This document shows positions 15,716-63,574 of a stretch of 64,000 bases of DNA, piece by piece. The position numbers were made by a program, and so were the translations under genes. Within the stretch, counting starts at the first letter, position 1, and each line of letters begins with the position of its first letter. Below the pieces are notes generated by a model. It was not told where the DNA came from. It was given only the letters and a program-made list of their open reading frames with translations, and searched no databases. Source of the DNA: a virus (Duplodnaviria > Caudoviricetes); IMG/VR virus record IMGVR_UViG_2600254917_000001, positions 1 through 64,000 of that record. One strand, given 5' to 3'.

Positions 15716-15797
15716 GGTGATGGCCCGAACAGGGTTGGCGTAACCGGCGTATACGAAGACCGGCCCGACCGAAGTCGGCCCTGCCCGAGCCACCATA
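15716..15797 (-). ncRNA. c4: c4 antisense RNA (copy A; loops CTTCGTATAC / ACGCCAA)
   Basis: ATGGTGGCTCGGGCAGGGCC..GGCCGG..CCGG..AACCCTGTTCGGGCC scaffold; TTGGCGT and GTATACGA targets both upstream and downstream. Confidence 0.85.
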
Positions 15798-15969
15798 ATT
15801 CTATAGGTGTGCACAGGCACAGACACAAAAAAAGACGCTAACGCGTCAGTGTCGTCGTATACATAAAACGGGACGCCAATCCCGGCACCAGATTTTGCTG
15901 GTGCCCTATTACGCTACTCGACCGAAACAGGCGTAGCAAGGGCTTTTTTACGTGGCGACACTGCGTCAC

Positions 15970-15986
15970 ATATCCTACTAAACATT
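15970..15986. promoter_or_regulatory. Putative C1-like repressor operator
   Basis: ATATCCTACTAAACATT; five near-identical copies in window. Confidence 0.7.
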
Positions 15987-16080
15987 ACATAAAATGCATA
16001 GTAAGAGTTCATTATAAATATCTTCAATGCATTCTCCATGCATATCAAATATGCACCGAGCATGCCTAACACATATTTTA
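15980..16080. repeat. 11-bp-phased ATGCAT-like box array
   Basis: ATGCAT at 15994, 16027 and 16038, all in one 11-bp phase. Confidence 0.6.
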
Positions 16081-16125
16081 GGTTTATGCGCATATCGTGC
16101 CTGAAGGTAACAGAACGGGAATTGC

Positions 16126-16204
16126 TGGTGGTGACTCGAACAGGGTTGGAACTACCGGCGGAGAAACCGGCCCACCTTTCGATGGCCCTGCCCGAGTTAC
16201 CATA
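16126..16204 (-). ncRNA. Orphan c4-like RNA (copy B; loops TTTCTCCG / AGTTCCAA)
   Basis: Same scaffold as copy A with different loops; no clear flanking a/b targets. Confidence 0.75.
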
Positions 16205-16384
16205 TCTGGGATGACAGCGGGAACAAACGAGCCGGTATTCTCCCACCTTCCCCACCAGCCAGCATTGATGCCAGACAAAGGATGCACATTAAACACATAC
16301 AAGATACATATCTGATATTCACACCATAAATCCATCCAGACACCTCCATGCTGGCCGAGCGTGCCGGATTGAACGATAAAAAAG

Positions 16385-16401
16385 ATATCCCACTAAACAT
16401 T
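16385..16401. promoter_or_regulatory. Putative C1-like operator
   Basis: ATATCCCACTAAACATT. Confidence 0.7.
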
Positions 16402-16500
16402 ATCAAATGATGACATCATGCATTTAAAAGTCATCCTTAATGCATTTCATATGCATTCAAAATACATATTAGATAAGCAATTCATGAGCATTATGTAAAC
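16395..16500. repeat. 11-bp-phased ATGCAT-like box array
   Basis: ATGCAT 16418, AGTCAT 16429, ATGCAT 16440, ATGCAT 16451, ATACAT 16462. Confidence 0.7.
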
Positions 16501-16542
16501 CCAACAAATCCAGCCTATACCAGCGCCTTGCCTGCCTACCTG

Positions 16543-16563
16543 GCGGTGCATAATTAATAGACT
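16543..16563 (+). promoter_or_regulatory. Putative late promoter
   Basis: GCGGTGCA-N7-TAGACT upstream of sit. Confidence 0.7.
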
Positions 16564-16587
16564 TCAGCCAATACCCCGCACCAGGTA

Positions 16588-19500
16588 ATGACAATGGCCG
16601 AAGATCAAAACAAGACCGTCGCTGACGATAAGCTCAGCGCTCTCAAAATCATTTCAACGATCGAGAAGACCAGCGCGAAGGAGCTGGACGTATTGCTCTC
16701 CATCGATAAGAAGCTGGATGGCAGAGCTCCGGCCGGGAAAGCGGCACCAACAAGCCCAAAGCGCGACGACAGCTCCCAGCGGCCCCCATCACGGGGCGCC
16801 CAACCTGAACAGGAAAGTATTCCACGTAAACCGAGAACACGATCACATTCTTCGACCACAGGGTTAGGGGAAGTTCATGACGACGGGCTGCGCATAACCC
16901 GCCGAGCGCCGCGTCGTGGGAGGCAAAGTAGAGATCAGGAAATCATTCCACATAAGCGTCAGCAGCCCTCTACCGCCACGATACCAGCGCAGCCTACACC
17001 TGAGCCAAAACTAGAAACCTCAAGCGAACCGGAACGAAAGCGCGACAGTAGCGGTCGGTTTACCAGCTCGGCAGATAAAGCCAGGGAGAAGCGCGAAGAC
17101 GTCCGACACAAAGAGCTTATCGACGAAGAGAAGAAAGGGCAGACGCTTTTCCAGAAGCTCTCTGGCTTCATGGAGCGCCGTAATTCGAAAGAAATGGAGG
17201 GAACGGCCATCGATGCAGCTGGCGCAGCTGCTGGTGGCTCTTTCTGGAAAGCAGGGAAGGAAGCCTGGGAGCTCGTCAGCAATACGCGTGAAATGCTCAT
17301 AAAAGGCAAAGACGATGATGACGACGAGAAGAAAGGCCGGTCTCTGTTTGGTAAGGCGAAAGGGCTCTTTCGTCGGAAGGGGTCCGCACCTCCAGCGCCG
17401 GGAACGGCGACGGGTGATATTCCCGCGCCATCGCTTAAGAGGGCCAACAGCGCACCGGCGATACTGAAAGCTGTGCCGCTAACCTCGACAGTGCGCGGAT
17501 TCGGGATGAAGGGCGCTCTGCAGTCTAGGGCCTCAGCTGGTTCGCTTGATGTAGCCAACCGTAATGTCCAAAAGGCCGTCGTGACAAAGACGGAGGAACA
17601 AACGCAGGCAATTCAGGAGGGCGATCGTCAAATCGTTGAACGCCTTGACGAGCTGCTGGAGAAAAATGGCTCCAGTAATAAAGGCGGTGGCCTGCTGGGC
17701 AAGCTGCTCGGCGGGAAGATTGGTAAAGCGCTGGCCGGGATCGCAGGCCTGTGGGTAGCAAAATACGGTAAAAAGCTGTTCAGCGCCTTAATAGCTGCCG
17801 TCACTGCTGCTGTCGGTCTGGGGCGGGGCAGGGGATTGGGTGGGCGTGATGCTTCCCCGGATATCGACGTTGATCGCAACAAAAAACCAGGCAACAAGAA
17901 GAACAAAAAGCCCAGCTCAAAACCAAAAGGGAAGAGCTGGGTTAAGAAGCTACTCACTAACCCCGTAACCAAGACTGCAGCCGCTACAGTAGCGACCGGC
18001 GCGGCGGCGGGCGCGGCCGTTAAAGCTATCGATGCCAAACCTGTGTCAGCTGCAGACGCCGCCAAAGAAAGCGCTCAGAAGGCCAAGGCCACCGCACCGA
18101 AGACCGGTGATGACGTGAAGGTTGGCCGTCCGGTAGCTGCTGAAGAACGCGCCGCACAGAAGGCTGAGAAGTCCGTCGCTACGAAAGCAACTGCAGAAGC
18201 GACTGAGAAGGGCGCTATCAAAGCCGCGGCGAAGGGTACCGCGAAGATGGGGATGCGGGCGGTTCCGTTGCTCGGGTCAGTAATAATGGCCGCTGTCGAT
18301 GCGTACGACGGCTATTCCGATGAGGAGGCCCAGAGGGAGGCCTTCGGGGTAGAAGAGGGCAAGGAGGTCACCACCGGCGAAAAAGCGGCCTTCTCAGCTG
18401 CGAACATCCTTGACATGGGTGGGCTGGTTTCCGGTGCGTCCGGGCTACTTGCGAGTGGCGCCCGGGCGATCGGTATGGATGGTGTGGCGGACTCACTCAC
18501 CTTCGATACCGGCGATATCGCCAAAGGGATCCACAGCGCGGCAAGCGGGGCTAAAAATGCCGTCACCTCGTTATTCAGCGGGCCAAAAGAGGCTGATTCC
18601 AAAACTGAAGCACAAACGAAGCATATAACCGACACGCTCAAAGAGGGCACGAAGGACACAATCAAAACGCTGGAAGATACCTCTAAGCGGCTGATCGACA
18701 CCATCACCGAAACGAACCCACTCGGCGATGCTGAGGTTATACCCTTAAAGGGTGTTGGTGTTGGTACTAATGGCCCGGCAGTTTCGACAATGCAGGGACC
18801 AAGCGAAACGACAATGACACCGGATCTTAATGTCGGTGGCAGCAAGGCTAAAGTCCGTTCATTCCGTAACAACAACTTCGGGAATATTACATTCGCTGGC
18901 CAAGCTGGCGCCGTGCTGGAGAAGAAAAACTCGCTCGGTGAGCAAAGATTTGCGCGCTGGAACACCCCTGAAGAAGGGCTGCGCGGGACGGCTAACCAGA
19001 TCATGTTGTATCAGACGGGTAAATCCCGATGGGGCAAGCTTGAAACGCTTGACGAGATGTTCGATAGATTTGCCCCACCGAGAGAAAATGATACCGAAAA
19101 TTATAAGCAAAGCCTGGAGAAGCAATTGGGCATCAGTCGACACGACAAAATTGACTGGTCCAACCCTGACAAAATACGTCCCTTAGTCCGTGCCATCGGT
19201 ACAGTTGAGGGTGGCGGCGCTATCCAGATGTCAGACGCTGATATGGCGAAGGCGATCGGTCACTATAATTACGAGACCAATCGCTGGGAGGGAGAATTTA
19301 CCGATCAGTCCCTGGAAAAAATAAACGCTCAACGTGCTAAAACCGGCGAGGCACCACTCAAGGCTACTGACCTTTTCAGTATTGGCAACCCACTTACCGG
19401 GCGAGGGGATATCCCCAAAGCGAATGGTGTAAATCAGTCGTCTCCTGCTGAAGTTTCTCCCATTACGCCAGCCCCCGAGCCTGAGCAGCACGCCCAGGCG

Positions 19501-20295
19501 GCAAAAAATAAACAGGAAATTACTCCACCTAAAACTGCAGCGACGGCAGGAGCCAGCTCCCCCGAGGGTATCACTGCAGGTTCAGTAGCTGGCGCTGTAG
19601 GCGCTGGTGCAAAGGAGATCGGTGGCTATGCGCTGGCTAATGTGGAGGGACTTCGTCAGAAGGACGCCCCTCAAGAGGTTACGCACCAGTCAGCTGAGAT
19701 AAGCAAAGAGAAGCGCGAAGAAGACGCTCAGCGACGTATTAACGCCAGCATACAGAACGGCGAGCAGTACACAGCGGCCAAAATACCACTTACAGATACC
19801 CCGATAATTGGTGAAATAATTAAAAAATTTGGCGGTGATCACGTCGCCAATGCTGAAGGTCTGCGCCATCAAGCCGCACCAGGCTCCAACGCCATGGACC
19901 GCGCTATCGCGTCTCAAGCCGGTAAAGGCCAGCCAACCCCCGTAATCCCAGCCAGAACGAGCGCGGCCCCGCAAACAGTCACCGGCGTTGCCAGCTATTC
20001 GCATCCGAAAGAGCTGTATTCAGTGACCGATCTTCAAAGTGCTACGCCAGCCATGCCAACAGCTGTCGATAAGCCAGCAGATCGCAAAGCGGGCAGCAGC
20101 ACTGTCGACGTCGAAATGAAGATGTTAGCGGCACTCAACAAGATTGCCGGCCTGCTGGAAGACATCAAAAAAGACGGTAGTAGCAAAGACACTCCGCGCT
20201 TCACTTCTGTTAAAAATTCGCCGCAACCGGCCCCGCGCGCAACGATACCGCTCTCGGTTGCCGATCCAACTATGTCCAGTCTTGCGAGCAGATGA
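16588..20295 (+). CDS. sit: Tape measure / injection transglycosylase Sit-like
   Basis: Long Ala/Gly/Lys-rich protein with RSFRNNNFGNI...RFARWNTPEEGLR lysozyme-like domain; synteny. Confidence 0.85.
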   Translation: MTMAEDQNKTVADDKLSALKIISTIEKTSAKELDVLLSIDKKLDGRAPAGKAAPTSPKRDDSSQRPPSRGAQPEQESIPRKPRTRSHSSTTGLGEVHDDGLRITRRAPRRGRQSRDQEIIPHKRQQPSTATIPAQPTPEPKLETSSEPERKRDSSGRFTSSADKAREKREDVRHKELIDEEKKGQTLFQKLSGFMERRNSKEMEGTAIDAAGAAAGGSFWKAGKEAWELVSNTREMLIKGKDDDDDEKKGRSLFGKAKGLFRRKGSAPPAPGTATGDIPAPSLKRANSAPAILKAVPLTSTVRGFGMKGALQSRASAGSLDVANRNVQKAVVTKTEEQTQAIQEGDRQIVERLDELLEKNGSSNKGGGLLGKLLGGKIGKALAGIAGLWVAKYGKKLFSALIAAVTAAVGLGRGRGLGGRDASPDIDVDRNKKPGNKKNKKPSSKPKGKSWVKKLLTNPVTKTAAATVATGAAAGAAVKAIDAKPVSAADAAKESAQKAKATAPKTGDDVKVGRPVAAEERAAQKAEKSVATKATAEATEKGAIKAAAKGTAKMGMRAVPLLGSVIMAAVDAYDGYSDEEAQREAFGVEEGKEVTTGEKAAFSAANILDMGGLVSGASGLLASGARAIGMDGVADSLTFDTGDIAKGIHSAASGAKNAVTSLFSGPKEADSKTEAQTKHITDTLKEGTKDTIKTLEDTSKRLIDTITETNPLGDAEVIPLKGVGVGTNGPAVSTMQGPSETTMTPDLNVGGSKAKVRSFRNNNFGNITFAGQAGAVLEKKNSLGEQRFARWNTPEEGLRGTANQIMLYQTGKSRWGKLETLDEMFDRFAPPRENDTENYKQSLEKQLGISRHDKIDWSNPDKIRPLVRAIGTVEGGGAIQMSDADMAKAIGHYNYETNRWEGEFTDQSLEKINAQRAKTGEAPLKATDLFSIGNPLTGRGDIPKANGVNQSSPAEVSPITPAPEPEQHAQAAKNKQEITPPKTAATAGASSPEGITAGSVAGAVGAGAKEIGGYALANVEGLRQKDAPQEVTHQSAEISKEKREEDAQRRINASIQNGEQYTAAKIPLTDTPIIGEIIKKFGGDHVANAEGLRHQAAPGSNAMDRAIASQAGKGQPTPVIPARTSAAPQTVTGVASYSHPKELYSVTDLQSATPAMPTAVDKPADRKAGSSTVDVEMKMLAALNKIAGLLEDIKKDGSSKDTPRFTSVKNSPQPAPRATIPLSVADPTMSSLASR

Positions 20296-20306
20296 GGCCA
20301 GTTTGA

Positions 20307-20660
20307 ATGATGAATGAAATTGACGCCCTGCTCGAAATTGGTCCGAACGGGGTAATAGTGCATGACGGTGACGAAGCCGCCTTGGTTGAACGCCTGGATG
20401 AGTGGTTATGTACGCCCCGCGGGACGATCTACGGATACCCCGACTGGGGCAACAGGCTGTCACGATTCAAACACGAACCGCCCGACACACCGACAGCAGT
20501 GCAGATCGAGAACGATATTATCAACAGCCTGCGCGTTGATATCCCGGCCCTGACAATCAACAAAATCGTCTGTTCACCAGTCGCATCAGCTTCCGACCGC
20601 TATGACATTGCGGTCGTGCTGGGAAGCGGTGCCGTGATCACGCGAGAGATCACTTTATGA
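20307..20660 (+). CDS. pmgA: Baseplate wedge / sheath initiator (gp25-like) PmgA
   Basis: RLDEWL.TP.G.IYG.P.WGN. Confidence 0.75.
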   Translation: MMNEIDALLEIGPNGVIVHDGDEAALVERLDEWLCTPRGTIYGYPDWGNRLSRFKHEPPDTPTAVQIENDIINSLRVDIPALTINKIVCSPVASASDRYDIAVVLGSGAVITREITL

Positions 20661-22078
20661 ACCAGAAAGACATTAACGATCAGTTTAACGCTCTGCTGAA
20701 AAAAGACAGCTGGTGGTCAAAGTATGCGGATTCGCAGTTTGTCGCCATGATTGCGCTTTTTGTGGGCCAGATGGTTTATCGCTGCTGGCAGTACGCTACG
20801 CGCGCCCTCCAGGAGGGCTTTATCAGTACGGCCCTGAAGCGTTCCTCCATTTTGGCTGCAGCTGAGGACAGGGGATATGTCGGGCGCCGTATCGCGCCGT
20901 CTACCGGCATGGTATCGATAACGAACCTGACGGCGGAGCGCCTGCAGTTACCGATTTACTCTACATTCGAGAGCGAGGACCTGGTTCCCGTCCTGCTGAC
21001 CGACGCGGTTGACCTGGCGGCAGGGGAAACTAAGAGCGTTTCAGCGAGCCAGTTGGAGGTGTACTCCGTTGAAAAAACAGTAGACGCAGCTGAACCGTTC
21101 TTCACCGTTATGCTGTCAAAAGAGATGACGGCCATGTGCCATAGCATTGACGTTTACGTCACCGAGCCGGACGGAACGAGCGTTCAATGGGCAAAATCAT
21201 TCATGTTCCGCAACGCGAACAACACCAGCAACGTCTACACAGAATTTTATAAGCCCACTGAGCAGATCGGGATTCGCTTCGGTGACGGTTCAACGGGACG
21301 CATTCCGCCAACCAGCAGCGTCATCAGTCTCGATGTCTGGTGTACCCAAGGCCAGATAACGGTTGTGGAAGGGCAGAAGCTTATTCCGGTGGATGAACTG
21401 GCGGACTACGAGCAGTCAATAAGCGTTGTGACGGCATCCCGTATATCCGGCGGCACCCCAGCTGAAAGCACCGAAGAAACCCGTGCCCGGGCGCAATACT
21501 TCGTTTCATACGATGAGCAAATCGTCTGGGGCGACGATTACGTGTTCTACCTGAAAAATACGATCGGGGGGATGTCCTGGCTACGCTGCTGGGGTGAAGA
21601 GGAGCAAGAGTCTTACACCGGGTACGACATACGAAACATTAACCGGATTTTCCTCTGTGGCCATAAACCCGGGATCGGGCAGGAGCAGCTTCACCTGCTG
21701 TTCATTGAGCGCCTGGCAGCCATCCCGGACAAGATGAATAAGCGATTCTCGCTGGTGCCAGTGAAATATTCACCTATCTCGATTCGTTTCATCGGCAAAG
21801 TGCCATCTACATCCGTGCCTAACGAGGTTGAGCTGACGCTGAAGAATGATCTCGATGTTCAGTTCGGTCGAGACTCATTCAAATTTGACACCGGCAGCGG
21901 CTATGAACCAATTACGAAAGACAAGCTTTGGGCCTTCATTGAATCGCTCGGGATCTTTACCGAATATGAGCTTGAGGTAGAAGGTTCGCTCGTGGCCGCG
22001 AATCTTGAAGATTTTATCTATCTGGACACTTCTACCTCGACGTTCGACATCGCTTTCAAGAAGAACGGGAGCCAGTGA
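20657..22078 (+). CDS. bplA: Baseplate wedge protein BplA
   Basis: FISTALKRSSILAAAEDRGY, IRFGDGSTGRIPP. Confidence 0.85.
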   Translation: MNQKDINDQFNALLKKDSWWSKYADSQFVAMIALFVGQMVYRCWQYATRALQEGFISTALKRSSILAAAEDRGYVGRRIAPSTGMVSITNLTAERLQLPIYSTFESEDLVPVLLTDAVDLAAGETKSVSASQLEVYSVEKTVDAAEPFFTVMLSKEMTAMCHSIDVYVTEPDGTSVQWAKSFMFRNANNTSNVYTEFYKPTEQIGIRFGDGSTGRIPPTSSVISLDVWCTQGQITVVEGQKLIPVDELADYEQSISVVTASRISGGTPAESTEETRARAQYFVSYDEQIVWGDDYVFYLKNTIGGMSWLRCWGEEEQESYTGYDIRNINRIFLCGHKPGIGQEQLHLLFIERLAAIPDKMNKRFSLVPVKYSPISIRFIGKVPSTSVPNEVELTLKNDLDVQFGRDSFKFDTGSGYEPITKDKLWAFIESLGIFTEYELEVEGSLVAANLEDFIYLDTSTSTFDIAFKKNGSQ

Positions 22079-22079
22079 T

Positions 22080-23189: not shown

Positions 23190-23665
23190 TGCCTCAATTA
23201 AACGTTGCTGTAGGGGCTGGTAGTGGCGATGTCAGTGATGACGGCGTGCTGTATAAAGCCAGCTTACTCGACTATTACTATGAACGGCGGGCAACAAGCT
23301 CTATTGGTATCGGCGAGCGGTTTGTCATGACAAAAGCCTGGTTTGGCACGAGCGATCTCGTCTCTGCAAATCCTGATGGCGCAGGCTGGCTTATCGGCGA
23401 CATTCCAGCCGACTTCTCCAATGCAGAGTTTAAAAATAAGTTTGCCGAGAGCGATCTTATCTGCAACTACGCTGATGGCCGCATCACGTTGCGCGCAGAG
23501 CTGCAGGATAAGAACCTGCCAGAAAACACACCATATGACTTCAATACGCTTGTCATCGTGGATGCCGAAGACAACGTCTGTATAACGCTATGTATTCAAC
23601 AAGACACGCTCTATCGTGGTAAGAAATTCATCGCGGTCCTGACCATTGAAACAAGGATTGCGTGA
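23189..23665 (+). CDS. Tail fibre attachment protein gpR-like
   Basis: [17 protein letters not shown]; synteny. Confidence 0.7.
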
Positions 23666-24927: not shown

Positions 24928-25630
24928 ACACCTTTGAATACTCTGACGAACCACGCCATTTTCGTATTTTCAATTTCACAGCAGATACACAAGAATATTT
25001 AGGAGAAAGCGATGCCCTGGTCGAACCTCACACAGGCTTACCATCCTATTGCACCCTTATTCAGCCCCCAGATTGTCCTGAGGGATACGCACTGGTCTTC
25101 AGAGATGATAGCTGGCATACGATTGAAGACCACAGGGGAAAAATTGTAGCTGATACGACCACCGGTTTAGAGATTGCCATCACCGATCTCGGTCCTCTTC
25201 CCGAAAACATCACAACCGTTCTTCGTGACAATATTTTCTCAAGTTGGGATGGTAAGAAGTGGATACCAGATATAGAAGTGCTAAACAATATCAAATCGCC
25301 AATATTAAAGCTCGTCGCGACAGTCTTAGCTCTGAATATATCAACATTGACGGTTACCATTTTCATAGCGATACCAACAGCCGTATCCAGCAAATTACCC
25401 TTACAAAAATGGGTAAAGCTGGCCTTATCCCTCCAGGGCTAATGTGGCAAACCAAAAATTCCGGTTTGATTGAGCTGACAAATGAAATCGCTGCACAATT
25501 TGAAGACGTAACAATTGCTCATGATATGCGCCTGTTCGCAAATGCGCTTCAGCATATCGCTTCGGTCAATAGCCTGGAAAACATTAATGATATTCTGGCT
25601 TATGATTACTCTGAAGGCTGGCAACCATGA
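24924..25630 (+). pseudogene. Tail fibre assembly chaperone (Tfa + DUF4376-like) split by a 1-nt frameshift near 25275
   Basis: Tfa motifs to WDGKKWIPDIE continue in another frame as SAKQYQIANIKARRD...YDYSEGW. Confidence 0.7.
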
Positions 25631-50245: not shown

Positions 50246-50447
50246 GTGATTGCCACAAAATAATAAAGTGTTAGTATAGGATTATGTGTCGCCGTCCGCC
50301 GCTTGACCTTCATTAACGGCTTCGAGTAGCGTGATAAAGCACCAGCAAAATCTGGTGCCGGGATTGGCGTCCCGGAAATGGTTACAGGCGACACAGACGC
50401 GCCAGCGTCTTTTTTTTTGTGTCAGTGCTCTTGCACACCTATAGAAT

Positions 50448-50530
50448 TATGGTGGCTCGGGCAGGGCCACCGAAAGGTGGGCCGGTTTCCTGTAACGCCG
50501 GTTACGCCAACCCTGTTCGGGCCATCACCA
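50448..50530 (+). ncRNA. c4: c4 antisense RNA (copy C; loops TCCTGTAAC / ACGCCAA)
   Basis: c4 scaffold; TTGGCGT and GTTACAGG targets at 50364-50388 and 50536-50572. Confidence 0.85.
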
Positions 50531-50583
50531 TGAATTGGCGTTCGTGTTGATGGTTATCATGACCGTTACAGGAGACTGCCTTC

Positions 50584-51063
50584 ATGGCTACCACCCCTAC
50601 CCAAACTCAGCCGTCATCTGACGAACTGGCCTACTTGGCACTTAACGCGCTGCGTTTCTCGATGTACATCAGCCTGTCAGATCCGGCCTGCGCTGAAGCA
50701 TTAGCAACACGAATCCTTTTAACCAATCCATCAGAAAATCATTCCACATTAAGCGACAACCAGCTCCAGCTCGATGCCGTAAAGCGCGCGATATGGCGCG
50801 CATGGGATATGTCACCGGTTGTCACAGACTACCGCCGTGCATGGCTGCAGGACGACGATCTGGACCTGTCACCAGACGATGCGCTTCCCGTTCTCTTTGC
50901 GAAGTTCTCTCAGCTGCGTACGTTGATCAGCTGCGCAGAAAAGCTGCTGGAGCCGCTCGGCAGCAATACGTATCTCGAAGACGTGCGCCAGCTGCTCGGA
51001 ACCGCGTCGGACATTGCTGGTGGCGCGCTCGTCATGTCAGTGTTTGATGGGGAGGCAGCATGA
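50584..51063 (+). CDS. First gene of c4-controlled operon (paralog of 15179-15658)
   Basis: Near-identical 159-aa protein. Confidence 0.75.
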   Translation: MATTPTQTQPSSDELAYLALNALRFSMYISLSDPACAEALATRILLTNPSENHSTLSDNQLQLDAVKRAIWRAWDMSPVVTDYRRAWLQDDDLDLSPDDALPVLFAKFSQLRTLISCAEKLLEPLGSNTYLEDVRQLLGTASDIAGGALVMSVFDGEAA

Positions 51064-51371
51064 AATCTATCCACGTAAACTTTCATGGTACCGAGCTGTT
51101 TATCATCGAGCACAACGGCGAACCGTATACACCGATGAAACCGATCGTTGAAGGAATGGGGCTGGACTGGAAAAGTCAGTTGGTTAAGTTTAACAAGCGG
51201 TTTAACTCAACTATGGTGGAAATCACCATGGTTGCAGCAGACGATAAATCCCGCGGTATGATCTGTCTTCCGCTGCGCAAGCTTGTTGCGTGGCTAAACA
51301 GCATTAGCGCGAACAAAGTAAAGCCGGAGCTACGAAACCGCCTGCTGCAATGCCAGGAGGGTATCGCATGA
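51060..51371 (+). CDS. P22 Ant N-terminal domain antirepressor
   Basis: FHGTEL...EHNGEPYTPMKPIVEGMGLDWKSQ, CLPLRKL..WL.SI. Confidence 0.85.
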   Translation: MKSIHVNFHGTELFIIEHNGEPYTPMKPIVEGMGLDWKSQLVKFNKRFNSTMVEITMVAADDKSRGMICLPLRKLVAWLNSISANKVKPELRNRLLQCQEGIA

Positions 51372-52108
51372 TGCTGGCAACCGAAGTGCGAATGACAAGC
51401 AGGGAGATTGCCGAACTAACGGGTAAACGACACCCAGATGTGAAGCGTGATATCGACACTATGCTCGTTGAGCTCAATGAAGATGTGAGCAATTTTGCTC
51501 ACATCTACTTGGACAGCATGAACCGGCAGCAAACTGAGTTCAGTCTCGATCGCCTGCATGTTGAATGCCTTCTTATGGGCTACAGTGCAACCCTGCGCAT
51601 GAAGGTCCTTAAGCGCCTGAAAGAGCTCGAATCGCTCCAACAAGATGCGCCGGTGCCGTCGGTCCCCAGCAGCGCAGCCGACACGATCGCAGCTGGCGGA
51701 GCTCTGCTGGAAGTGAGCAGAAAATTACTCCACATATCGGATAGCAGCGTGCTCGCGGGGCTACGCAAACTGCAAAGCGCAGCTGGGCTGCCGGACCTGC
51801 TCCCGGGTTACGCCATCGATGCACCACCGTCCGCCACGGGCGGCAGCAGTGAGCCAACGGCGAGCCTTCGCCAGCTGCTGGTGGAGAACGGGGTGAAGAT
51901 GTCCGCGCAAAAAGCGTATGCCCGCCTGGCGGAGCTGGGGATTGTCGAGCAGAAGACGCGGACCAGCACCCGCGGCGAAAAGCATTACTGGTGCCTGACG
52001 GCCAAGGGCATGGAGTACGGCAAGAACCTGACCGCGCCGGGGAACCCCCGCGCTACCCAGCCGCACTTCTTCACTTCGCGTTTCACTAGACTGGTTGAGC
52101 AGCTGTAA
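51368..52108 (+). CDS. Rha-family regulator with antirepressor-type C-domain
   Basis: MTSREIAELTGKRH.DV.RDI; C-domain shared with 14412-15182. Confidence 0.85.
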   Translation: MMLATEVRMTSREIAELTGKRHPDVKRDIDTMLVELNEDVSNFAHIYLDSMNRQQTEFSLDRLHVECLLMGYSATLRMKVLKRLKELESLQQDAPVPSVPSSAADTIAAGGALLEVSRKLLHISDSSVLAGLRKLQSAAGLPDLLPGYAIDAPPSATGGSSEPTASLRQLLVENGVKMSAQKAYARLAELGIVEQKTRTSTRGEKHYWCLTAKGMEYGKNLTAPGNPRATQPHFFTSRFTRLVEQL

Positions 52109-52984: not shown

Positions 52985-53070
52985 TATGCATACCCGCATT
53001 ATCCTCATATTTTATGCATCTCAAGTGCTTACATGATATGCATTATAAATGCATATTGAATGCATTAGTG
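52985..53070. repeat. 11-bp-phased ATGCAT box array
   Basis: ATGCAT 53014, GTGCTT 53025; ATGCAT 53038, 53049, 53060. Confidence 0.7.
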
Positions 53071-53266: not shown

Positions 53267-53280
53267 TATAAGAGGGTGAA

Positions 53281-53463: not shown

Positions 53464-53525
53464 TTCAAACGGCGCAATGAGGTAGCGCTAATCCGTTCTT
53501 TAAAAATCAGGAAAAAGAGGTCGCT

Positions 53526-53666: not shown

Positions 53667-53675
53667 TACTCGAAA

Positions 53676-54261: not shown

Positions 54262-54355
54262 CTGCGAGCCTGGTTGACCACGATGTATTAGCCGATCCTG
54301 CTGGCGTTTTGAAGGTCGAACAGGGACTTAATTCCCATACAGGAATAGTTAGAAA

Positions 54356-54964: not shown

Positions 54965-54966
54965 GT

Positions 54967-55421: not shown

Positions 55422-55436
55422 CAGATAAGGACAGCT

Positions 55437-56455: not shown

Positions 56456-56670
56456 TACCGCTGCCTACATGCCCGAAGTGTGGCCTTCAGGCCCAGATCC
56501 GGTTGCGTGAGCGCGGTATGAACATGGGTAGCAGTGAGCTTCGTTGCCCGGAGGGCCACTTCAGAGTGGGGACGAGTTTCCACTCAGGCATGAAAAACTG
56601 GGCTCGTAACTGGCTACTGGAAGAGTGGGAAAAAAAAGTGAAGGAAGCTGCGGAGGCTAACAATGCATGA
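56452..56670 (+). CDS. Zn-ribbon protein
   Basis: CPKCG...CPEGH. Confidence 0.6.
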   Translation: MIPLPTCPKCGLQAQIRLRERGMNMGSSELRCPEGHFRVGTSFHSGMKNWARNWLLEEWEKKVKEAAEANNA

Positions 56671-58132
56671 TGACAATGTATTAAAGGGATTTTTAAGGGA
56701 CGTCAGCTCCCACACCATGACGATTATCAGAGATGACGGTTTTTACCGTCATCTTTCGTTTGGGCGCCCGGGAAGCAGCATTTACCGCTTCGACCTGGTC
56801 AGCTGGCCTGGTTATCTCTGCATGACCGGCGACATGGGAACGTGGACGTTCAGCCGTATCACCGACATGTTTGACTTCTTCGGCGGCGCATTTGAGCGAG
56901 GTATCAACCCGCGCTACTGGTCGGAAAAGCTGGAGGCCGGTTCCGGTTGTCCACGCGATGAGATCGCAAAAGAGTGGGATGAACAGGCCTACTGCCAGCG
57001 TCTCGATTACATCCTGAAGGAGTGGTGTGAAGAGCATGCCCCTGGCAAAGGCGCGCCAAAGGACCGGATAAAAGAGTTCCACTATAAACGGAAGCATACG
57101 GAGGACATCATCCGCCAGATGAAAGAGGTCAGCTATTCAGAGATGGATGCCTATGCCGCGTATGCGAGCGTGGACGATCCTGACGGTGTGCTGACCGACT
57201 TCTGGGAATCCACCTTCAAAGTCTGGTCAATACACTTCCTTTGGGCCTGCTATGCGATCCAGTGGGGTATCAGCCGGTACAAGAACAATAAAATAGCGTT
57301 ATCCGCGATGGATAAGTTCCTCGCGATCGGGAGCGCTGCCGGTGCCGAATACGGCGAGGCTTATCCCGTTCTCGTGCAGCAGGCCATATCTCGTTTACTG
57401 CGCGGCGAACTGAAAACCTATCGCAACGGTCTCACCATCGGCTTTGCAAGGGATCACAGTGGTGTATGTGAGGTATGGGGCCGCGATGCCCGCGACTATG
57501 AAGGGAAGGTAATCGCGCGTCGTCTCGTGGCGTGCTGGAATGCTTGCAAGGGGTTGCCGACCGGCGAACTGGAAAGCGTGGGCTTAACCGGGGCTCTGGG
57601 TAATGAGCTGCTTAAACTGGACCGACTGGAGACATTGCGCCAGGATCTTATCGAACTGCGCGAATGCTTCAAGGAAGCTGGTCTCCCGATAAACCGTAAC
57701 CAACCTCATAGCGTTGACAGCGTGGATAAGGCGAGTCCCCAGTTGCAGCCGGGCCAATATGCCATTTACTACCTGGACAATTCCATTGGCGAACATGACC
57801 GGTACCACCGATTAGCCACCCTTGATATCGACGGCAAATGGGAGGATGAGGACGGCCGGGAGTTGCTGCAGTATGAAGGCGATCAAATATTGAGCGTCTG
57901 GCCGCTGTTCGAGTCCGCCGACCTGATGAATATGGCTCAGCTGGTGGATGAAGCTTCCTCAATGCGAGAAAGCTTTATCAGCTATCTGATATCAGAAAAC
58001 TTAAAGAACAAGCCTGACGTTGACCAGGATGTCCTCTATACCCATTGCGCGAAGTGGGTTGACGCGATGTGCCATACGCCTTTGCTGCTACGCATTATCG
58101 AAACTGCTAAATCGGTAGAAGAGAAACCCTGA
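56663..58132 (+). CDS. Multidomain phage accessory protein
   Basis: DDG.YRHL.F, WPG.L...GDMG...F, IN..YWSEKL, ARRLVACWNAC. Confidence 0.75.
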   Translation: MHDDNVLKGFLRDVSSHTMTIIRDDGFYRHLSFGRPGSSIYRFDLVSWPGYLCMTGDMGTWTFSRITDMFDFFGGAFERGINPRYWSEKLEAGSGCPRDEIAKEWDEQAYCQRLDYILKEWCEEHAPGKGAPKDRIKEFHYKRKHTEDIIRQMKEVSYSEMDAYAAYASVDDPDGVLTDFWESTFKVWSIHFLWACYAIQWGISRYKNNKIALSAMDKFLAIGSAAGAEYGEAYPVLVQQAISRLLRGELKTYRNGLTIGFARDHSGVCEVWGRDARDYEGKVIARRLVACWNACKGLPTGELESVGLTGALGNELLKLDRLETLRQDLIELRECFKEAGLPINRNQPHSVDSVDKASPQLQPGQYAIYYLDNSIGEHDRYHRLATLDIDGKWEDEDGRELLQYEGDQILSVWPLFESADLMNMAQLVDEASSMRESFISYLISENLKNKPDVDQDVLYTHCAKWVDAMCHTPLLLRIIETAKSVEEKP

Positions 58133-58268
58133 GCGCAGACAGGCAGCGTTTGAGATAAGCCCCGGCATGAGTCTTCAACCCAGGCTTTCCTTTTCAGCCC
58201 CGATCATCATTTCTTTATCGATTCCTCTTTTCAATTTCAGCCAGGCGCGATGCGCCAGGAGCATCCTT

Positions 58269-59105
58269 ATGTCCAAAAAAGGTCAAACCTTCACTATCAA
58301 CATGTGGCGTCCAGATCCTGAAGAGACGGCGAACATGTGGAAACTTTTCCACAGCGCGGAGCGAGTACAGGATCGTTGGTCAATAAACACGGTACCTCAA
58401 ATTGCTGAGGAGCTGGCTTCCACGAACCTCTCCCGCGAGGAAAAATTGTTTCTACTGCGCGCCTGGCAAATGCTGGTGGATGACAAAGCAGGCTTCGGAC
58501 GCTTCATGGGGGCCTTTGATTGCTATGTCCACAATGTCCAGGATCCTACTGCTGAGTACGTGGCATATAAGCCTGAGCTTAAGGCGTGTATTGAAGACGG
58601 TCTGATCTTTGAGGAGGTGCTGGAGGCTTACCAGGGCGCTCAGCAGCGCATCATAGAGCTGGAGGCGCTCACTTATTACCTTAAATTGCCGGATGAGCTC
58701 GACTTCGACTGTGAGTATGAGCGCGGCGGCCATAGTCCCTCTGATGAGCCGTTCCTGCGCGGGTGCGTAGAGGGCTGGAATCTGGCGATTGGAAAAGTAA
58801 GCCAACTCAATGGTGCCACTGGCCAACGACCAACCGCCTGGTACACCGACGATCATAAAACAGATAAATCGGCCACAACCTACGATCCTGCTGTCGCGTT
58901 GCGCTGGAAGTCAAAGAGCTGGCCAGTCACTCCGCTCTATGAAAACCCACCAGCTCAGCTATCACCGGCTTTTACAGGCGATTATTTGGATGAACAGCGT
59001 GCGGCCGTCATCGAGAGTGTTGCTTCAAAGCGCTGGGGTGTCGGCTATGTATTTGATGGGCTGTTGGCCATCGCCAACAAGCTCCGGCATGGGGTGGGGC
59101 ATTAA
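58269..59105 (+). CDS. Ead/Ea22-like phage accessory protein
   Basis: AQQRIIELEA, GWN, P.AW...VTPLY modules. Confidence 0.65.
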   Translation: MSKKGQTFTINMWRPDPEETANMWKLFHSAERVQDRWSINTVPQIAEELASTNLSREEKLFLLRAWQMLVDDKAGFGRFMGAFDCYVHNVQDPTAEYVAYKPELKACIEDGLIFEEVLEAYQGAQQRIIELEALTYYLKLPDELDFDCEYERGGHSPSDEPFLRGCVEGWNLAIGKVSQLNGATGQRPTAWYTDDHKTDKSATTYDPAVALRWKSKSWPVTPLYENPPAQLSPAFTGDYLDEQRAAVIESVASKRWGVGYVFDGLLAIANKLRHGVGH

Positions 59106-59202
59106 ATTCTTGCCAAAAAATGGGGGCTATTCATGGGATTTCATTGATAACTTTAGGGAAAAGATGTTTCATTGGTGCACAGGTTAACTATGGAGAGTTT
59201 AA

Positions 59203-59913
59203 ATGTCTTGGGTATGCCCGCACTGCGATACGGCTGCAATTGTCGATGATGAAGATATTGAAATTAATTATTTTGACTTGAAGTCAGGAGAATATGATTT
59301 CCGATTTACTACTATGGGTATAACTTGCCCGAATCCAGCATGTGCAAAAGCTTGCATTTGGATGAGCAAAGAGACATTGGTTTATTATGCCGGAGAACTT
59401 AAGCCTGCTATGGGTACAAAATCGACATGGCCTATCGTTCCTTCTGGTAAGAAAGAACGAGCGAAACCCTATCCGGAGTATATACCGCAATCTGTTTTGG
59501 AAGATTACAGAGAAGCTTGCGCTATTGTGGAGCTTTCACCAAAAGCTTCGGCAACTCTTGCTAGAAGGTGCTTACAAGGGATGATCCGTGGGTTCTGGAA
59601 AGTTGAAGCAGACACACTTAACAAAGAAATTTTGGCAATTCAGGACAAGGTTGACCCAGTTGTCTGGGATGCAATAGACAGTGTCAGGAAGGTAGGTAAC
59701 ATCGGCGCTCATATGGAGAAAAACATAGACGTCATTGTTGATGTCAGCCCTGATGAAGCCAATTTGCTGATCGAAATGATTGAAATGCTAATTGAAGATT
59801 GGTACATCGCTCGTCATGAAAAACAAGAGAAGCTAAAGCGGATAAAGGAAGTAGCTGCTGAAAAAGCAGCAGCGAGGAAGGTTAAACCTGATGAAAAAGC
59901 TGATAATAGCTAG
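59203..59913 (+). CDS. DUF4145 (HEPN-like) protein with N-terminal Zn ribbon
   Basis: CPHC..CPNPAC, SPKASATLARRCLQGM, RKVGNIGAH. Confidence 0.85.
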   Translation: MSWVCPHCDTAAIVDDEDIEINYFDLKSGEYDFRFTTMGITCPNPACAKACIWMSKETLVYYAGELKPAMGTKSTWPIVPSGKKERAKPYPEYIPQSVLEDYREACAIVELSPKASATLARRCLQGMIRGFWKVEADTLNKEILAIQDKVDPVVWDAIDSVRKVGNIGAHMEKNIDVIVDVSPDEANLLIEMIEMLIEDWYIARHEKQEKLKRIKEVAAEKAAARKVKPDEKADNS

Positions 59914-60253
59914 TTTGTTGTTTGTCGCATCAGCTTCTGTAGCAGCTGATGCAACAGTTAAATCAATGGCGCATGCAACTTATATGTGCGGTGAGAGCGG
60001 CTTAGTTGTAAAAACTACTGGCCTAACTGCAAGCATCGACGGCGTGAGCGATTACAAAATGTACGCAAGTGATAATCAACCAGCATCTGATACCCTTCCT
60101 GGTTTCGTTAGCGTCTCATATCGGTCTGCGACCAATGAAAGCAACTGGTTTTCATTATCATTGACTAAAAAAAGCGAATACATCTCCCTCACAAACGTCA
60201 ATAAATCAAAAGGCTTAGAGCAGATTGGACTTTCTTGCCAGATTGTTGAGTAA
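59891..60253 (+). CDS. Small secreted protein
   Basis: Signal peptide MKKLIIASLLFVASASVAA; two Cys. Confidence 0.7.
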   Translation: MKKLIIASLLFVASASVAADATVKSMAHATYMCGESGLVVKTTGLTASIDGVSDYKMYASDNQPASDTLPGFVSVSYRSATNESNWFSLSLTKKSEYISLTNVNKSKGLEQIGLSCQIVE

Positions 60254-60318
60254 GATCTGGCAAGTGCCTTTCTGTGAAGTGATGAAATTTTATTCATTCT
60301 TAAATGGGAGTGGAATGT

Positions 60319-60777
60319 ATGGCTAACGAAAGGCTTTTGATTCCGCAAGATGCTGGCTACTTCCATGCTCTTGGTTTGGCGGCTGTCGCTTTTGCTCGTC
60401 TGGAATGGGATGCTGTTTGGTGCTGCGAAAGGCTTCAAAAAGGTTACATATCAACAATTGAACCTAAGAAGAAGACCGCGGGGTTCATTGCTAGAGATCT
60501 TGAAGCGTTATTCGGCCGAATTTCAGATCACACGCTTCGCCAAAAAGTAGAACCTTTTGCTACAGAGTTTATTGCTATCGTTCTTGATCGTAACGCACTT
60601 TTCCACGGCAAACCTGGAACGACAAAAGAATCTGATCAGAGGCTTTTCCGCTCAGGTATACCTTGGTCAATCCAGGATGTTAATGACTTTGCTGACCGGT
60701 GCACGCGGGCAGGTGCTCCACTCAATGCGCTCCTTTACGATGAGCTCAAGGAAAACTGCACCGTTGCGCTTAACTAG
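60319..60777 (+). CDS. Putative HEPN-like protein
   Basis: ALG.....FA.LE helix and RNALFH (RxxxxH). Confidence 0.6.
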   Translation: MANERLLIPQDAGYFHALGLAAVAFARLEWDAVWCCERLQKGYISTIEPKKKTAGFIARDLEALFGRISDHTLRQKVEPFATEFIAIVLDRNALFHGKPGTTKESDQRLFRSGIPWSIQDVNDFADRCTRAGAPLNALLYDELKENCTVALN

Positions 60778-60814
60778 TAATTATCCTATTAAAACGTGAT
60801 TAATCAGTTACTTT

Positions 60815-60849
60815 GACCCCCAGTTTGATTTCTTCACTGGGGGTTTTTT
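60815..60849 (+). terminator. Intrinsic terminator
   Basis: ACCCCCAG...CTGGGGGT-TTTTT. Confidence 0.7.
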
Positions 60850-61002
60850 ATTGGTTTATTTTCGGAGAGATTCAAACGCAGCGGAGGAACATAGTAAAAA
60901 ACTGGAATGATGGCCGTAAAAATGAAAACTCGACAATAAATTGTACGAAAACAGTGATTATTATTCAGGGATTAAATACGCAAGGAGAGAGGAAGGGAAG
61001 TA

Positions 61003-61431
61003 ATGGACAACGATTTTAACCGCGTGCTGTTTGAGGAGATGTTACGGCAAACCTATCGTAACGCATCTGGTAAGAAGGCAACGCGCCAGATGATTGAAGA
61101 CCTCCGCCTCAGTCCGCCCAAGGAAGGATATTCAGATCCGAGCATGAATTTTCTGTGGCTTGGCTGGTGTGCGGCGCATGAGTTGTTTCGTAGCGCGCCG
61201 GTGCACATGTTTAAGGAACTATCGCCGCAGAATATCCCCCCAGCTGAAGAAGATTTTCTGAGCTATTACGAAAAACCTGGCAAGTACTACGTGCTACGGA
61301 TGAGCGAAACCCATACGTTCTGCCTTGCCCATACCCCCGCAGTGGATGCTCCCGTTCCCATGCCAGATCCCTCGCACTGGATGTCGTTATCCGAAAATAC
61401 GCCTCACTTCGAGGTCGGGCTCGTACACTAA
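61003..61431 (+). CDS. Hypothetical phage protein
   Basis: RBS; W.GW motif. Confidence 0.6.
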   Translation: MDNDFNRVLFEEMLRQTYRNASGKKATRQMIEDLRLSPPKEGYSDPSMNFLWLGWCAAHELFRSAPVHMFKELSPQNIPPAEEDFLSYYEKPGKYYVLRMSETHTFCLAHTPAVDAPVPMPDPSHWMSLSENTPHFEVGLVH

Positions 61432-61553
61432 ACCTACACCGCTTTAAACCTACCCGTTCAACCGCCCCGTGCTGAAAAGCGCGGGCGGGGTTGTTGACAG
61501 GCCTGCATTACCCATGCAGAGCGCCTGACAGGAATTTAAGAGAAGAATCACCA

Positions 61554-61877
61554 ATGAAGAAATTGCACAGCATGATCAGCATTGCGGTGTGCCTAAACAA
61601 ACACACCGCGAATGGCCAGCCCCTCCGCGTCTCGGATATGAGCAAACATATCGGTCTGTCGATCTCATGCATCGAGGGCTACCTCCAACCCCTAAAAGCT
61701 GCGGGTATTGTCGATAGTACCCGCGGTCCGAACGGCGGTTACTGGCTTGTCCGTAACGATCTGACCGTCACCGAGCTCTATCTGGCCGGTAACGAGAAGG
61801 AAGATGCATTTGCACCTATCTACGATGCATTGTCTCGGGTCAATCTGTCAGCGTTCAGCGAGGCCGTGTATGGCTGA
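61554..61877 (+). CDS. Rrf2-family winged-HTH regulator
   Basis: LKAAGIVDSTRGPNGGYWL. Confidence 0.85.
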   Translation: MKKLHSMISIAVCLNKHTANGQPLRVSDMSKHIGLSISCIEGYLQPLKAAGIVDSTRGPNGGYWLVRNDLTVTELYLAGNEKEDAFAPIYDALSRVNLSAFSEAVYG

Positions 61878-62139
61878 TCTGAAGGTTGTGCCATTTAAGG
61901 CCTGCGATAACTCTGTGCATGATCGTGACGAGATCATTCGTAAGCTGGAGGAGTGCCTGGCATTCGTCAAAGAGGAGGGAAGCGATCAGGTTGCCCGGGC
62001 TATGGCTGTCGTCTTGCTAACGGATGGACCTGCTGGTGGCCTTCTCAGCTGCTGGCATAACGGTAAAGAGAACCATGAAATGCTCGGCGCCATTGAGTCG
62101 CTGAAGGTCGATTTTGTGCACGCATGCATATCGCTATGA
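61870..62139 (+). CDS. Hypothetical phage protein
   Basis: MADLKVVPF, MLGAIESLK. Confidence 0.6.
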   Translation: MADLKVVPFKACDNSVHDRDEIIRKLEECLAFVKEEGSDQVARAMAVVLLTDGPAGGLLSCWHNGKENHEMLGAIESLKVDFVHACISL

Positions 62140-62152
62140 AGAGGAAACAACA

Positions 62153-62792
62153 ATGAGTGATTTACATCTGATCCTGACCACGACTCAGCGAGAAGTGCTT
62201 GATTCGTTCACAAGGAATTTCGAAGGTCTGCCTAACTGCCGTATTCACCAGGGCTTCTATCAGGAATTACGAAAACATGACGCGGTGGTTTCACCGGCAA
62301 ACAGTTTTGGCCTGATGGATGGCGGTTTCGATCTGGTGCTCACGCAGCGCTTCGGGGAACAGCTCATGAAGCGCGTCATGATGCATATCGATGAGCATTA
62401 CCTCGGCGAGCAGCCTGTAGGAACCGCGTTCGTTATTGAAACCGGGCATCCATATACCCCCTGGCATGGTCCATGCCCCGACTATGCGTGTGCCAGAGCT
62501 GGTGGCCGGTACAGACGTCGCGTACCGCTCAACTTGGGCCGCGCTGATTGGGATCCATAACCACAACCTGCAGGCTGACGCCGACAAGCAAATTAAGAGC
62601 GTTGTCTTTACCGGAATGGGCGCTGGTTGCGGGGAAATGCCTCCGGAAAGTGTGGGCCAGCAAATGGCGCTGGCGTGGGCGCGCTATCATGAAGTATTGA
62701 GCGGAACGGCTTACAACGGGATGAGCCGCTGGCAGATGGCCATTAATATTCAACGGCGAGTAATTAGTGCCGTGGTTGGGGTTGAGCAGTAG
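62153..62792 (+). pseudogene. Macro domain (ADP-ribose processing) protein split by a 1-nt frameshift near 62465
   Basis: VSPANSFGLMDGGFD...GEQPVGT in one frame; VHAPTMRVP...GMGAGCG in the next. Confidence 0.8.
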
Positions 62793-62989
62793 TTGGCCCG
62801 CTTCTCTGCAACTGTGGTTGCCAAGAGCGCAGATGATGCGCTTAGAGCTAACCTTTCTTCGGTAGCTCGTTTTATGACAGGGCGGCTTCTGCGGGCTCTA
62901 TTACCTTCGGTCAATGATTGCATTTCTCCGACCCTCCACTGGATGTTAAAAGGGGAGGTGGTGCCTCCCCTTTACTTACGTTTCCGCTA

Positions 62990-63085
62990 TCAGTCGAAAT
63001 ACTGGCGGATCAATTCCAAAACAGCAATCATCGCTTCTGCAAGCGCGATCACTCCTTTGAGAATAATGATTAGTTTACTAATCAT
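62990..63085 (-). CDS. Type I toxin, DinQ-like (31 aa MISKLIIILKGVIALAEAMIAVLELIRQYFD)
   Basis: IAVLELIR resembles DinQ IALLELIR; SD in CTCCAC/GTGGAG hairpin; TATAAT at 63295-63300; terminator 62948-62974. Confidence 0.85.
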   Translation of the reverse strand: MISKLIIILKGVIALAEAMIAVLELIRQYFD

Positions 63086-63378
63086 CCGTTACTCCACTAC
63101 GTGGAGGGAGTGCGCCGTTGCCTGCTCATGGACGCCTGGCACAACGGTGTCCCCTAAAAATGTCAGTTAATAGATAGCACCCCTCCTGCCAGAGCCCTCT
63201 GTAGCGGCACCACCCGTTTACAGAGCCAGGACTTTCATATCATTCATGCAGCGCAGAATGCAGGAGATCGACTAACTATAAAGCTAACCCCCTGATTATA
63301 CTCTCAAGAAAGAGCACGGGTAAATCGTGAAGGGAACATTCGGGTTGCATGAACGTGATGGAGGGCGTATTCTTTGAT

Positions 63379-63468
63379 TGTTAGTTAATAGAGAGCACTC
63401 CTCCAGCCAGGGCACTCCACCTCGGCACTGGAACTGCAAAAACCCGACCTCACCAGTCGGGTTTTTTG
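63379..63468 (+). ncRNA. Divergent antisense antitoxin sRNA (AgrB-like)
   Basis: 33/39-nt match to toxin leader 63161-63199; TTGCAT-N17-TATTCT promoter; ACCCGAC/GTCGGGT poly-T terminator. Confidence 0.8.
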
Positions 63469-63492
63469 CATTATAAAGCAGCTCAATCTCAG

Positions 63493-63574
63493 TATGGTGT
63501 CTCGGGCAGGGCCACCGAAAGGTGGGCCGGATGTCGCCGCGCCGGTTGTTGCAACCCTGTTCGAGTCACCGCCA
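63493..63574 (+). ncRNA. Orphan c4-like RNA (copy D; loops ATGTCGCCGC / GTTGCAA)
   Basis: Intact c4 scaffold with no flanking targets or downstream antirepressor gene. Confidence 0.75.

Follow-up and report, generated by a model that had tools for sequence, protein, structure and literature searches.

A P1-like phage-plasmid (virus record IMGVR_UViG_2600254917_000001, 95,253 bp) was found to carry six genes for C4 RNA, four of them (A, C, E and F) in complete P1-type immI switches and two (B and D) standing alone. The two solo RNAs belong to the C4 family, fold as C4 RNAs, have loop sequences of their own, lack cognate sites in this genome and are absent from relatives. Our tentative reading is that cassette turnover gave rise to B and D as by-products. 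The lineage exchanges its immI modules and loop alleles constantly, and B and D would be solo C4 genes left behind in this way, keeping an intact scaffold without a leader, a2/b2 boxes, a controlled gene or a canonical partner in this genome. We infer that they arose by cassette replacement, are transcribed and lack function.

The window analysed here is the first 64 kb of the record, and genome-wide scans covered all 95 kb. P1-like gene content included a 1235-amino-acid (aa) Sit-type tail transglycosylase, a 2291-aa DarB-sized open reading frame (ORF) and a LydA-type holin. The nearest records were two Enterobacter kobei plasmids of 96 and 109 kb (NZ_CP156932.1 and NZ_CP104726.1), and the host of the element is probably Enterobacter. 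C4 genes were called with the Rfam covariance model RF01695 (gathering score 45), as follows.

15713–15800, minus strand: C4 copy A, 79.8 bits, b′ UCUUCGUAUACG, a′ UUACGCCAA, in a complete immI-type module.
16124–16207, minus strand: C4 copy B, solo, 63.4 bits, b′ UUUCUCCG, a′ UAGUUCCAA.
50445–50532, plus strand: C4 copy C, 80.3 bits, b′ UUUCCUGUAACG, a′ UUACGCCAA, in a complete module.
63490–63576, plus strand: C4 copy D, solo, 60.8 bits, b′ AUGUCGCCGCG, a′ UUGUUGCAA.
Genome 64700–64787, plus strand: C4 copy E, 80.1 bits, in a complete module beyond the window.
Genome 92793–92880, minus strand: C4 copy F, 71.6 bits, in a complete module beyond the window.

The original prediction had described four C4 scaffolds and quoted their loops. 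All four scored above the gathering score and took canonical folds, and the quoted loop sequences were correct; the count of four holds for the window, the record having six with E and F past the window end. All six copies covered model positions 1–87, and the minimum-free-energy structure was the canonical C4 fold in 6/6. The four copies in the window folded into a 17-bp outer stem, hairpin 1, hairpin 2 with the b′ loop and an unpaired a′ linker (z −3.7 to −4.9), and a tRNA-like 3′ CACC(A/G)CCA was readable in every copy; in P1/P7-type switches RNase P matures the C4 RNA from the operon leader, and the product acts in trans. B and D had the lowest scores of the six (the others lying at 71.6–80.3 bits) and one mismatch each in the outer stem, A·C in B and U·U in D. 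The loop of B had just 6 unpaired bases, and the b′ loop of D was partly self-paired in the minimum-free-energy fold.

Modules A, C, E and F shared one architecture, which matched the annotated P1 immI map. ATGCAT boxes and an operator-like ATGTTTAGTAkGATAT were followed by a promoter (TTGAC(G)-17-TAGCGT), a leader, C4, a2, b2 and ORFs. The leader, of the isrK / c4-a1b1 type, displayed a1 in a hairpin loop; b1, a GGCGACA box and a T-run terminator came next, and a spacer of ~27 nt separated the leader from C4. The 7-nt a2 began 3–8 nt past C4, and the 8–10-nt b2 followed 29–33 nt later on the ribosome site, a P1-like spacing. The first ORF (159–171 aa, N-terminus MATIPTQT) belonged to no Pfam or PHROG family and was followed by a gene for an Ant/Rha-type antirepressor. 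A and C had been predicted to carry cognate targets on both sides; a1/b1 were indeed found upstream and a2/b2 downstream of each.

15828–15917, minus strand: isrK / c4-a1b1-type leader of module A, with a1 TTGGCGT in the hairpin loop, b1 GTATACGA and a leaky terminator (RF01394, 75.6 bits; RF03163, 43.8 bits, under its gathering score of 46.7).
15659–15712, minus strand: a2 TTGGCGT and b2 GTATACGAGG of module A, b2 over the ribosome site, with P1 a2/b2 spacing.
14412–15658, minus strand: genes of module A, a 159-aa ORF in the icd position and a 256-aa Ant-type antirepressor, the latter in PHROG anti-repressor families.
50339–50415, plus strand: isrK-type leader of module C (RF01394, 79.5 bits), with a1 TTGGCGT, b1 GTTACAGG, the GGCGACA box and a terminator.
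50533–52108, plus strand: a2/b2 of module C, a 159-aa ORF, a 103-aa P22_AR_N protein and a 252-aa Rha/Ant-type protein.

The a/b codes were TTGGCGT/GTATACGA in module A, TTGGCGT/GTTACAGG in module C, TTGAGAC/ACACACGG in module E and TTAGCCT/GCACAAGG in module F. Since each module has its own code, the four switches should be orthogonal. By every feature that could be tested these four are P1-type immI switches, save that the first ORF is not recognisably icd. In each of them the C4 RNA would be cut from the leader of its own operon, and its a′ and b′ would pair with a2 and b2 at the ribosome site of the first ORF, keeping the antirepressor operon silent; a1 and b1 in the upstream isrK-like leader would be decoy copies. 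C4-type RNAs are the textbook case of immunity specificity held in a few RNA bases. Four orthogonal switches in one phage-plasmid, with a and b words shuffled independently among relatives, indicate how far such a code can be multiplexed.

B and D lacked all of these parts, in agreement with their description as orphans. No a1b1 or isrK leader was detected upstream of either, even at E values up to 1, and no a2, b2 or ORF start was found downstream. In a scan of the whole genome for an a site followed by a b site 10–45 nt on, the cognate a2/b2 pairs of the complete modules came top (scores 43–46), and their a1/b1 pairs scored 37–40, at or slightly over the top of the background (35–38). The best non-self score for B was 35, and those for D fell within a broad background; no cognate pair for either was present in the 95 kb. 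BLAST of the B leader, the B downstream spacer and the D flanks against the genome and the retrieved loci gave no a1/b1, a2/b2 or icd-like remnant, and matched only ATGCAT/operator regions and the TA repeat; no homologue of B's leader was found in the same search. B and D are members of the RNA family only, and the features that define immI (own targets, a leader and a controlled operon) are missing from both.

Two candidate sites were rejected. An 8-nt match for B (CGGAGAAA) in hairpin 1 of copy F (92857) was ascribed to chance, ~3 such 8-mers being expected in 190 kb and ~4 seen. An a/b-like pair for D at 63613 and 63641 needed two G·U pairs, had no start codon after it, was antisense to a coding region and was unranked genome-wide.

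A target at a distant locus of the element itself had also been proposed. The genome-wide scan gave nothing above background, and the best site for B was the ribosome site of a Lipase_3 gene.

14290–14240, minus strand: Lipase_3 candidate site for B, TTGGGACT-N29-GGAGAAA-6-ATG.

It is quite unlikely that the orphans act on their own element outside the immI boxes, B at this ribosome site and D as a cis-antisense RNA to the 3′ untranslated region of the convergent 269-aa gene. The Lipase_3 site is the best non-self match of B, which could form 8 bp (one G·U) through a′ and 7 bp through b′ with b over the ribosome site, and a shuffle test gave p ~0.05. However, it stood at the top of the background and not over it, its spacing was 37 nt against the canonical 29–33, and the E. 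kobei lipase gene had no such site. As to D, the 269-aa ORF stops 8 nt away and the next terminator that could act on the minus strand, as read from the sequence, lies beyond D, so the mRNA of this gene should contain anti-D; but such an overlap is a mere consequence of position and no evidence of regulation. The lipase gene itself (346 aa, class 3; window 13200–14240, minus strand) lies downstream of module A and has its own ATGCAT/promoter region. An E. kobei relative has a lipase-family gene in the same region with an unrelated leader.

The surroundings of B and D offered plausible sources of transcription.

16384–16451, minus strand: region upstream of B with ATGCAT boxes, promoter-like TTTAAA-18-GATAAT and operator-like ATGTTTAGTGGGATAT, all of the type that precedes the complete modules.
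63381–63469, plus strand: putative AgrB-like antitoxin small RNA (sRNA) with a bidirectional terminator; over the full model length, RF02891 gave 39.1 bits (gathering score 40) and E 1e-4.
62990–63085, minus strand: putative 31-aa DinQ-like (DqlB-type) type I toxin ORF MISKLIIILKGVIALAEAMIAVLELIRQYFD, partner of the AgrB-like sRNA.
63584–64000 and on to genome 64393, minus strand: 3′ part of the 269-aa ORF (phrog_7611), convergent with D.

The promoter-like site and operator-like motif lay 190 nt upstream of B. Because no terminator was seen between B and the leader of module A, B would be the first element of a long module A transcript. The terminator of the AgrB-like sRNA was 21 nt upstream of D on the same strand, and this layout of sRNA, terminator, ~25 nt and C4 mirrored the canonical layout of leader and C4. 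From these arrangements B would probably be transcribed from its own operator/promoter, and D by read-through of the AgrB-like terminator. The toxin leader and the AgrB-like sRNA shared a 50-nt direct repeat (78% identity). Plasmid records matching the cassette carried a dqlB annotation under the match, and the homology ended at the AgrB-like terminator, 20 nt before D. No relatives of the 269-aa ORF locus were found in IMG/VR.

This DinQ/DqlB-type cassette type (window 62990–63469, with the hydrophobic 31-aa ORF) was present in 4736 PLSDB records, mostly conjugative plasmids. The genome had 52 copies of ATGCAT, about 23 being expected, in clusters often spaced by 11 nt (window 14374–14407, 15994–16038, 16418–16451 and 52986–53060; genome 93071–93139). 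Such clusters preceded the immI-type A, B and F, the Lipase_3 gene and a site near 53 kb, and an operator-like ATGTTTAGTrkGATAT adjoined them (15984, 16399, 43659, 93061 and 93244, minus strand). These motifs may be sites for a repressor or a global regulator.

B- or D-type copies were found in none of PLSDB, INPHARED, IMG/VR, the GTDB representatives and the JGI metagenomes; the closest C4s in PLSDB and INPHARED were ordinary copies of the E. kobei plasmids (84–86% identity). Scans keyed to the a′ context of B and D were run on IMG/VR and on one genome per GTDB species, and on the JGI metagenomes in a stricter form that added the 3′ strand of the scaffold. They recovered many complete modules, of which 0 had the b′ of B or D. 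Two of the 11 GTDB matches to the a′ pattern (L032 and L037) lay outside any C4 and were discarded as chance. Exact scans of IMG/VR for the b′ hairpins gave one match each for B and D, likewise by chance, in genes of unrelated GC-rich phages.

The E. kobei plasmids had three complete modules each and, at the syntenic sites, neither the B nor the D orphan. The holin-side module had one b code (GTTACAGG) in the three relatives and three a codes (TTGGCGT here, TTGCAAC in NZ_CP156932.1 and TTCGAAC in NZ_CP104726.1). Because this module keeps b and varies a, a and b words appear to be exchanged independently. In a sample of 30 C4 matches from five other genomes, 28 kept a cognate a2; a copy cut after a2 and a low-scoring copy without boxes were also seen (L070 and L076).

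Several other features of these relatives were observed. In NZ_CP156932.1 the C4 of the sit-side module (25386–25474 and downstream) was 89 nt long, its 3′ stem having one base too many, and the first ORF started with ATC, not ATG; this module may be decaying. ATGCAT boxes stood directly before the sit-side C4 in both E. kobei plasmids, without an isrK-type leader. The Symbiopectobacterium purcellii genome had 25 C4 matches, many sharing b′ UUGGUUGUAU with differing a′; this set is an unusually large family of immI-type switches.

These searches bear on the original proposal that the orphans are stand-alone guides. It stands in that B and D are intact solo units, with loops unlike those of their neighbours and a′ alleles used elsewhere; it fails in that no module with the b′ of B or D was found in any collection scanned, and neither orphan was conserved in a relative. 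In its ordinary form this explanation is most unlikely; a heteroimmune phage or satellite not yet sequenced would have to carry the full a/b targets at the ribosome site of its antirepressor operon or of a lytic operon, with CGGAGAAA or CGCGGCGACAU as b2 in a2/b2 geometry. In P1 and P7, c4 is a diffusible repressor that sets immI specificity; extra alleles would widen immunity, and the a′ alleles of B and D do exist in nature. But the a′-keyed scans recovered every module with such an allele in IMG/VR, the GTDB representatives and the metagenomes, and none with the matching b′, the exact b′-hairpin scans yielded only the chance matches, and a b2 for D would be without a ribosome site, since its b′ has no anti-Shine-Dalgarno part. 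The pair TTGGAA..GGAGAA had been put forward as a search target; the full TTGGAAC..CGGAGAAA pair was absent from every collection scanned.

Cassette turnover, the reading we prefer, is consistent with several findings. B and D are singletons with the lowest C4 scores and one stem mismatch each, and they sit at junctions of mosaic blocks. Modules and loop alleles are visibly shuffled among relatives, and decayed or truncated C4 copies occur in other genomes. P1 and P7 are heteroimmune. They differ by just 2 nt in each loop and in each of the four target boxes, and a half-matched C4 is therefore unlikely to repress.

Other findings weigh against turnover. On all four sides, the homology of B and D to the complete copies begins or ends within ~4 nt of a mature-RNA border; the decayed copies elsewhere show ragged ends or lost boxes instead. 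The stems of B and D are near-identical to those of copy E and the loops wholly different, a pattern that reads as functional diversification and not as even decay. Both genes are in sense orientation behind plausible transcription sources, and the distance of D from the sRNA terminator falls in the canonical 21–27 nt. The b′ of D is not derivable from UUUCC-N6-G by a few substitutions, and its 12/12 identity to a leader box of a relative, together with its complementarity to GGCGACA, has an estimated chance of ~2e-4.

The a′ of B (UAGUUCCAA) recurred in modules of phiP27- and SfV-type phages, Yokenella, Kosakonia, Sodalis, Symbiopectobacterium, Buttiauxella and Aeromonas; in the complete ones it is matched by a1/a2 TTGGAAC. 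The a′ of D (UUGUUGCAA) was that of the holin-side module of NZ_CP156932.1 and of one metagenome contig; both modules carry a2 TTGCAAC, and the NZ_CP156932.1 module has a1 too. The canonical b′ of the lineage is UUUCC-N6-G, in which UUUCC faces the GGAGA ribosome site and N6 gives specificity. Both orphans depart from it. The b′ of B (UUUCUCCG) keeps nothing beyond a perfected anti-GGAGA (anti-Shine-Dalgarno) core. That of D (AUGUCGCCGCG) is without the anti-ribosome-site part, so it is unable to block a canonical b2.

Twelve bases of D's b′ (GATGTCGCCGCG) were identical to a box upstream of the leader promoter of NZ_CP104726.1, and 10 were identical to the corresponding box in module E of the element itself. 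The same b′ was complementary to the GGCGACA(U/C) box after b1 in leaders C, E and F and in relatives, with duplexes of −13 to −14.7 kcal/mol, on par with cognate b′–b1. At least GCGACA was present after b1 in 21/39 leaders examined, and in many it pairs with AUGUCGC directly past the terminator; RNAalifold predicted this helix in the Enterobacter leaders, with the strand that D copies. To our knowledge, the role of the GCGACA helix in isrK/c4-a1b1 RNAs has not been described. The helix is conserved (leaders of loci L058, L062 and L071–L083, and window 50385–50430), and it brackets the terminator or, in some leaders, replaces it. A TTGCAAC..GGCGACA pair, the other suggested search target, was present in the a1b1-type leader of NZ_CP156932.1, with a spacing of 25 nt against 14–17 for a1–b1; the GGCGACA half of the pair is generic rather than specific.

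These alleles allow a different explanation, possible though on the doubtful side, that B and D are working trans-acting C4 RNAs, non-canonical half-guides whose a′ would pick out a foreign a-allele and whose b′ would pair with an invariant element in place of the variable b box. B would use a′ for TTGGAAC and the UCUCC of its b′ for the GGAGA ribosome site, and so dampen translation of foreign TTGGAAC modules. D would use a′ for TTGCAAC and b′ AUGUCGCC for the GGCGACAU box beside b1 in foreign isrK-like leaders, e.g. that of NZ_CP156932.1; it would neutralise an activator/decoy RNA or alter terminator read-through, keeping the incoming antirepressor silent. This explanation is a close rival of cassette turnover.

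The pairing energies argue for such an activity. The a′ of B fits a1/a2 of at least 20 complete modules (from phiP27/SfV-type phages, Yokenella, Kosakonia, Sodalis, Symbiopectobacterium and Buttiauxella) at −8.3 to −8.5 kcal/mol, which is cognate strength, and its b′ would pair with their ribosome sites at −6.8 to −9.2 kcal/mol. The a′ of D fits a1/a2 TTGCAAC of loci L014 and L042, and its b′ fits the box in the element's own leaders C, E and F and in foreign leaders as well as cognate b′ fits b1. The conservation of the box in 21/39 leaders, the RNAalifold helix, the precise ends of B and D at the mature-RNA borders and their plausible transcription sources point the same way, and the IsrK leader RNA is known to act in trans (PMC4825925). 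On the other side, B and D are singletons, b′ of B gives 5–7 bp against 10–12 for cognates, P1/P7 heteroimmunity accompanies 2-nt changes per loop, the a1-to-box distance in L014 is the long one of 25 nt, and the b′ loop of D is partly self-paired.

In a more general form, solo C4 RNAs would make up an allele-generalist class that retains scaffold and allele-specific a′ and has b′ retargeted to an invariant immI element, the ribosome site in B and the GCGACA box in D; this is rather doubtful. If true, one small gene could blunt the switches or leader RNAs of a whole class of foreign phages, whatever their b code. Should B and D be active, they would provide the first demonstrated cases of c4 RNAs that act solely on other elements, and D the first of one that targets a leader/decoy RNA instead of a ribosome site; such RNAs would provide a cheap, RNA-only layer of phage-against-phage exclusion. 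If they are leftovers of turnover, as we prefer to read them, B and D record how immI cassettes get replaced.

The closest known system is immI of P1 and P7. Citron and Schuster reportedly described its c4 in 1990 as a 77-nt processed antisense RNA. The P1 annotation (NC_005856) gives the order Oc4, P2c4, P1c4, a1, b1, c4, a2, b2, icd and ant1. A, C, E and F resembled P1/P7 immI in the order and spacing of parts, b2 on the ribosome site, the antirepressor downstream, the Rfam family and the two-loop code. They differed in the first ORF, P1 Icd having 73 aa and the present ORFs 159–171 aa without a family match. In contrast to P1/P7 immI, B and D had only the RNA itself, with b′ loops off the canonical form. 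P1 and P7 have one C4 each and phage D6 two or three, whereas the present element has six.

In D6 a weak third C4-like RNA (75792–75871, minus strand; 40 bits, below the cut-off) lies 470 nt upstream of c4-icd-ant. As a possible precedent for a tandem orphan it was rejected, having its own a2 (GTGGAACA), a ribosome site and two small ORFs; it makes a tandem, diverged c4-type switch.

The Salmonella Gifsy-1 locus has the order IsrK–STnc1160–orf45–anrP, and its IsrK leader RNA activates antirepressor translation in trans; the IsrK terminator is documented to be read through, and an ~80-nt RNA to be processed from the read-through transcripts (PMC4825925). Modules A and C resembled Gifsy-1 in having a full-length isrK/c4-a1b1 leader, a leaky terminator, a C4-type RNA and an antirepressor. 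B, in contrast, had no isrK-type leader, and D stood behind an AgrB-like sRNA and terminator instead. The E. kobei plasmids shared with the element the C4 scaffold and complete modules at syntenic sites (by sit, the holin genes and the phrog_7611 gene), and one module of NZ_CP156932.1 carried the a′ allele of D; orphans and the AgrB–C4 junction were missing from them, as was a second C4 between sit and the A-type module.

The CI RNA of satellite P4 has been discussed as an analogue (PMC4825925). Like C4, P4 CI RNA (seqA/seqC; N15 CB RNA) is small, is processed from the leader of its own target operon and has targets on both sides. P4 CI acts by premature transcription termination through a single recognition segment, whereas the present RNAs match the two-segment C4 model. 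Multi-copy orthogonal immI switches and target-less C4 genes, as found in this phage-plasmid, are variants of a known system.

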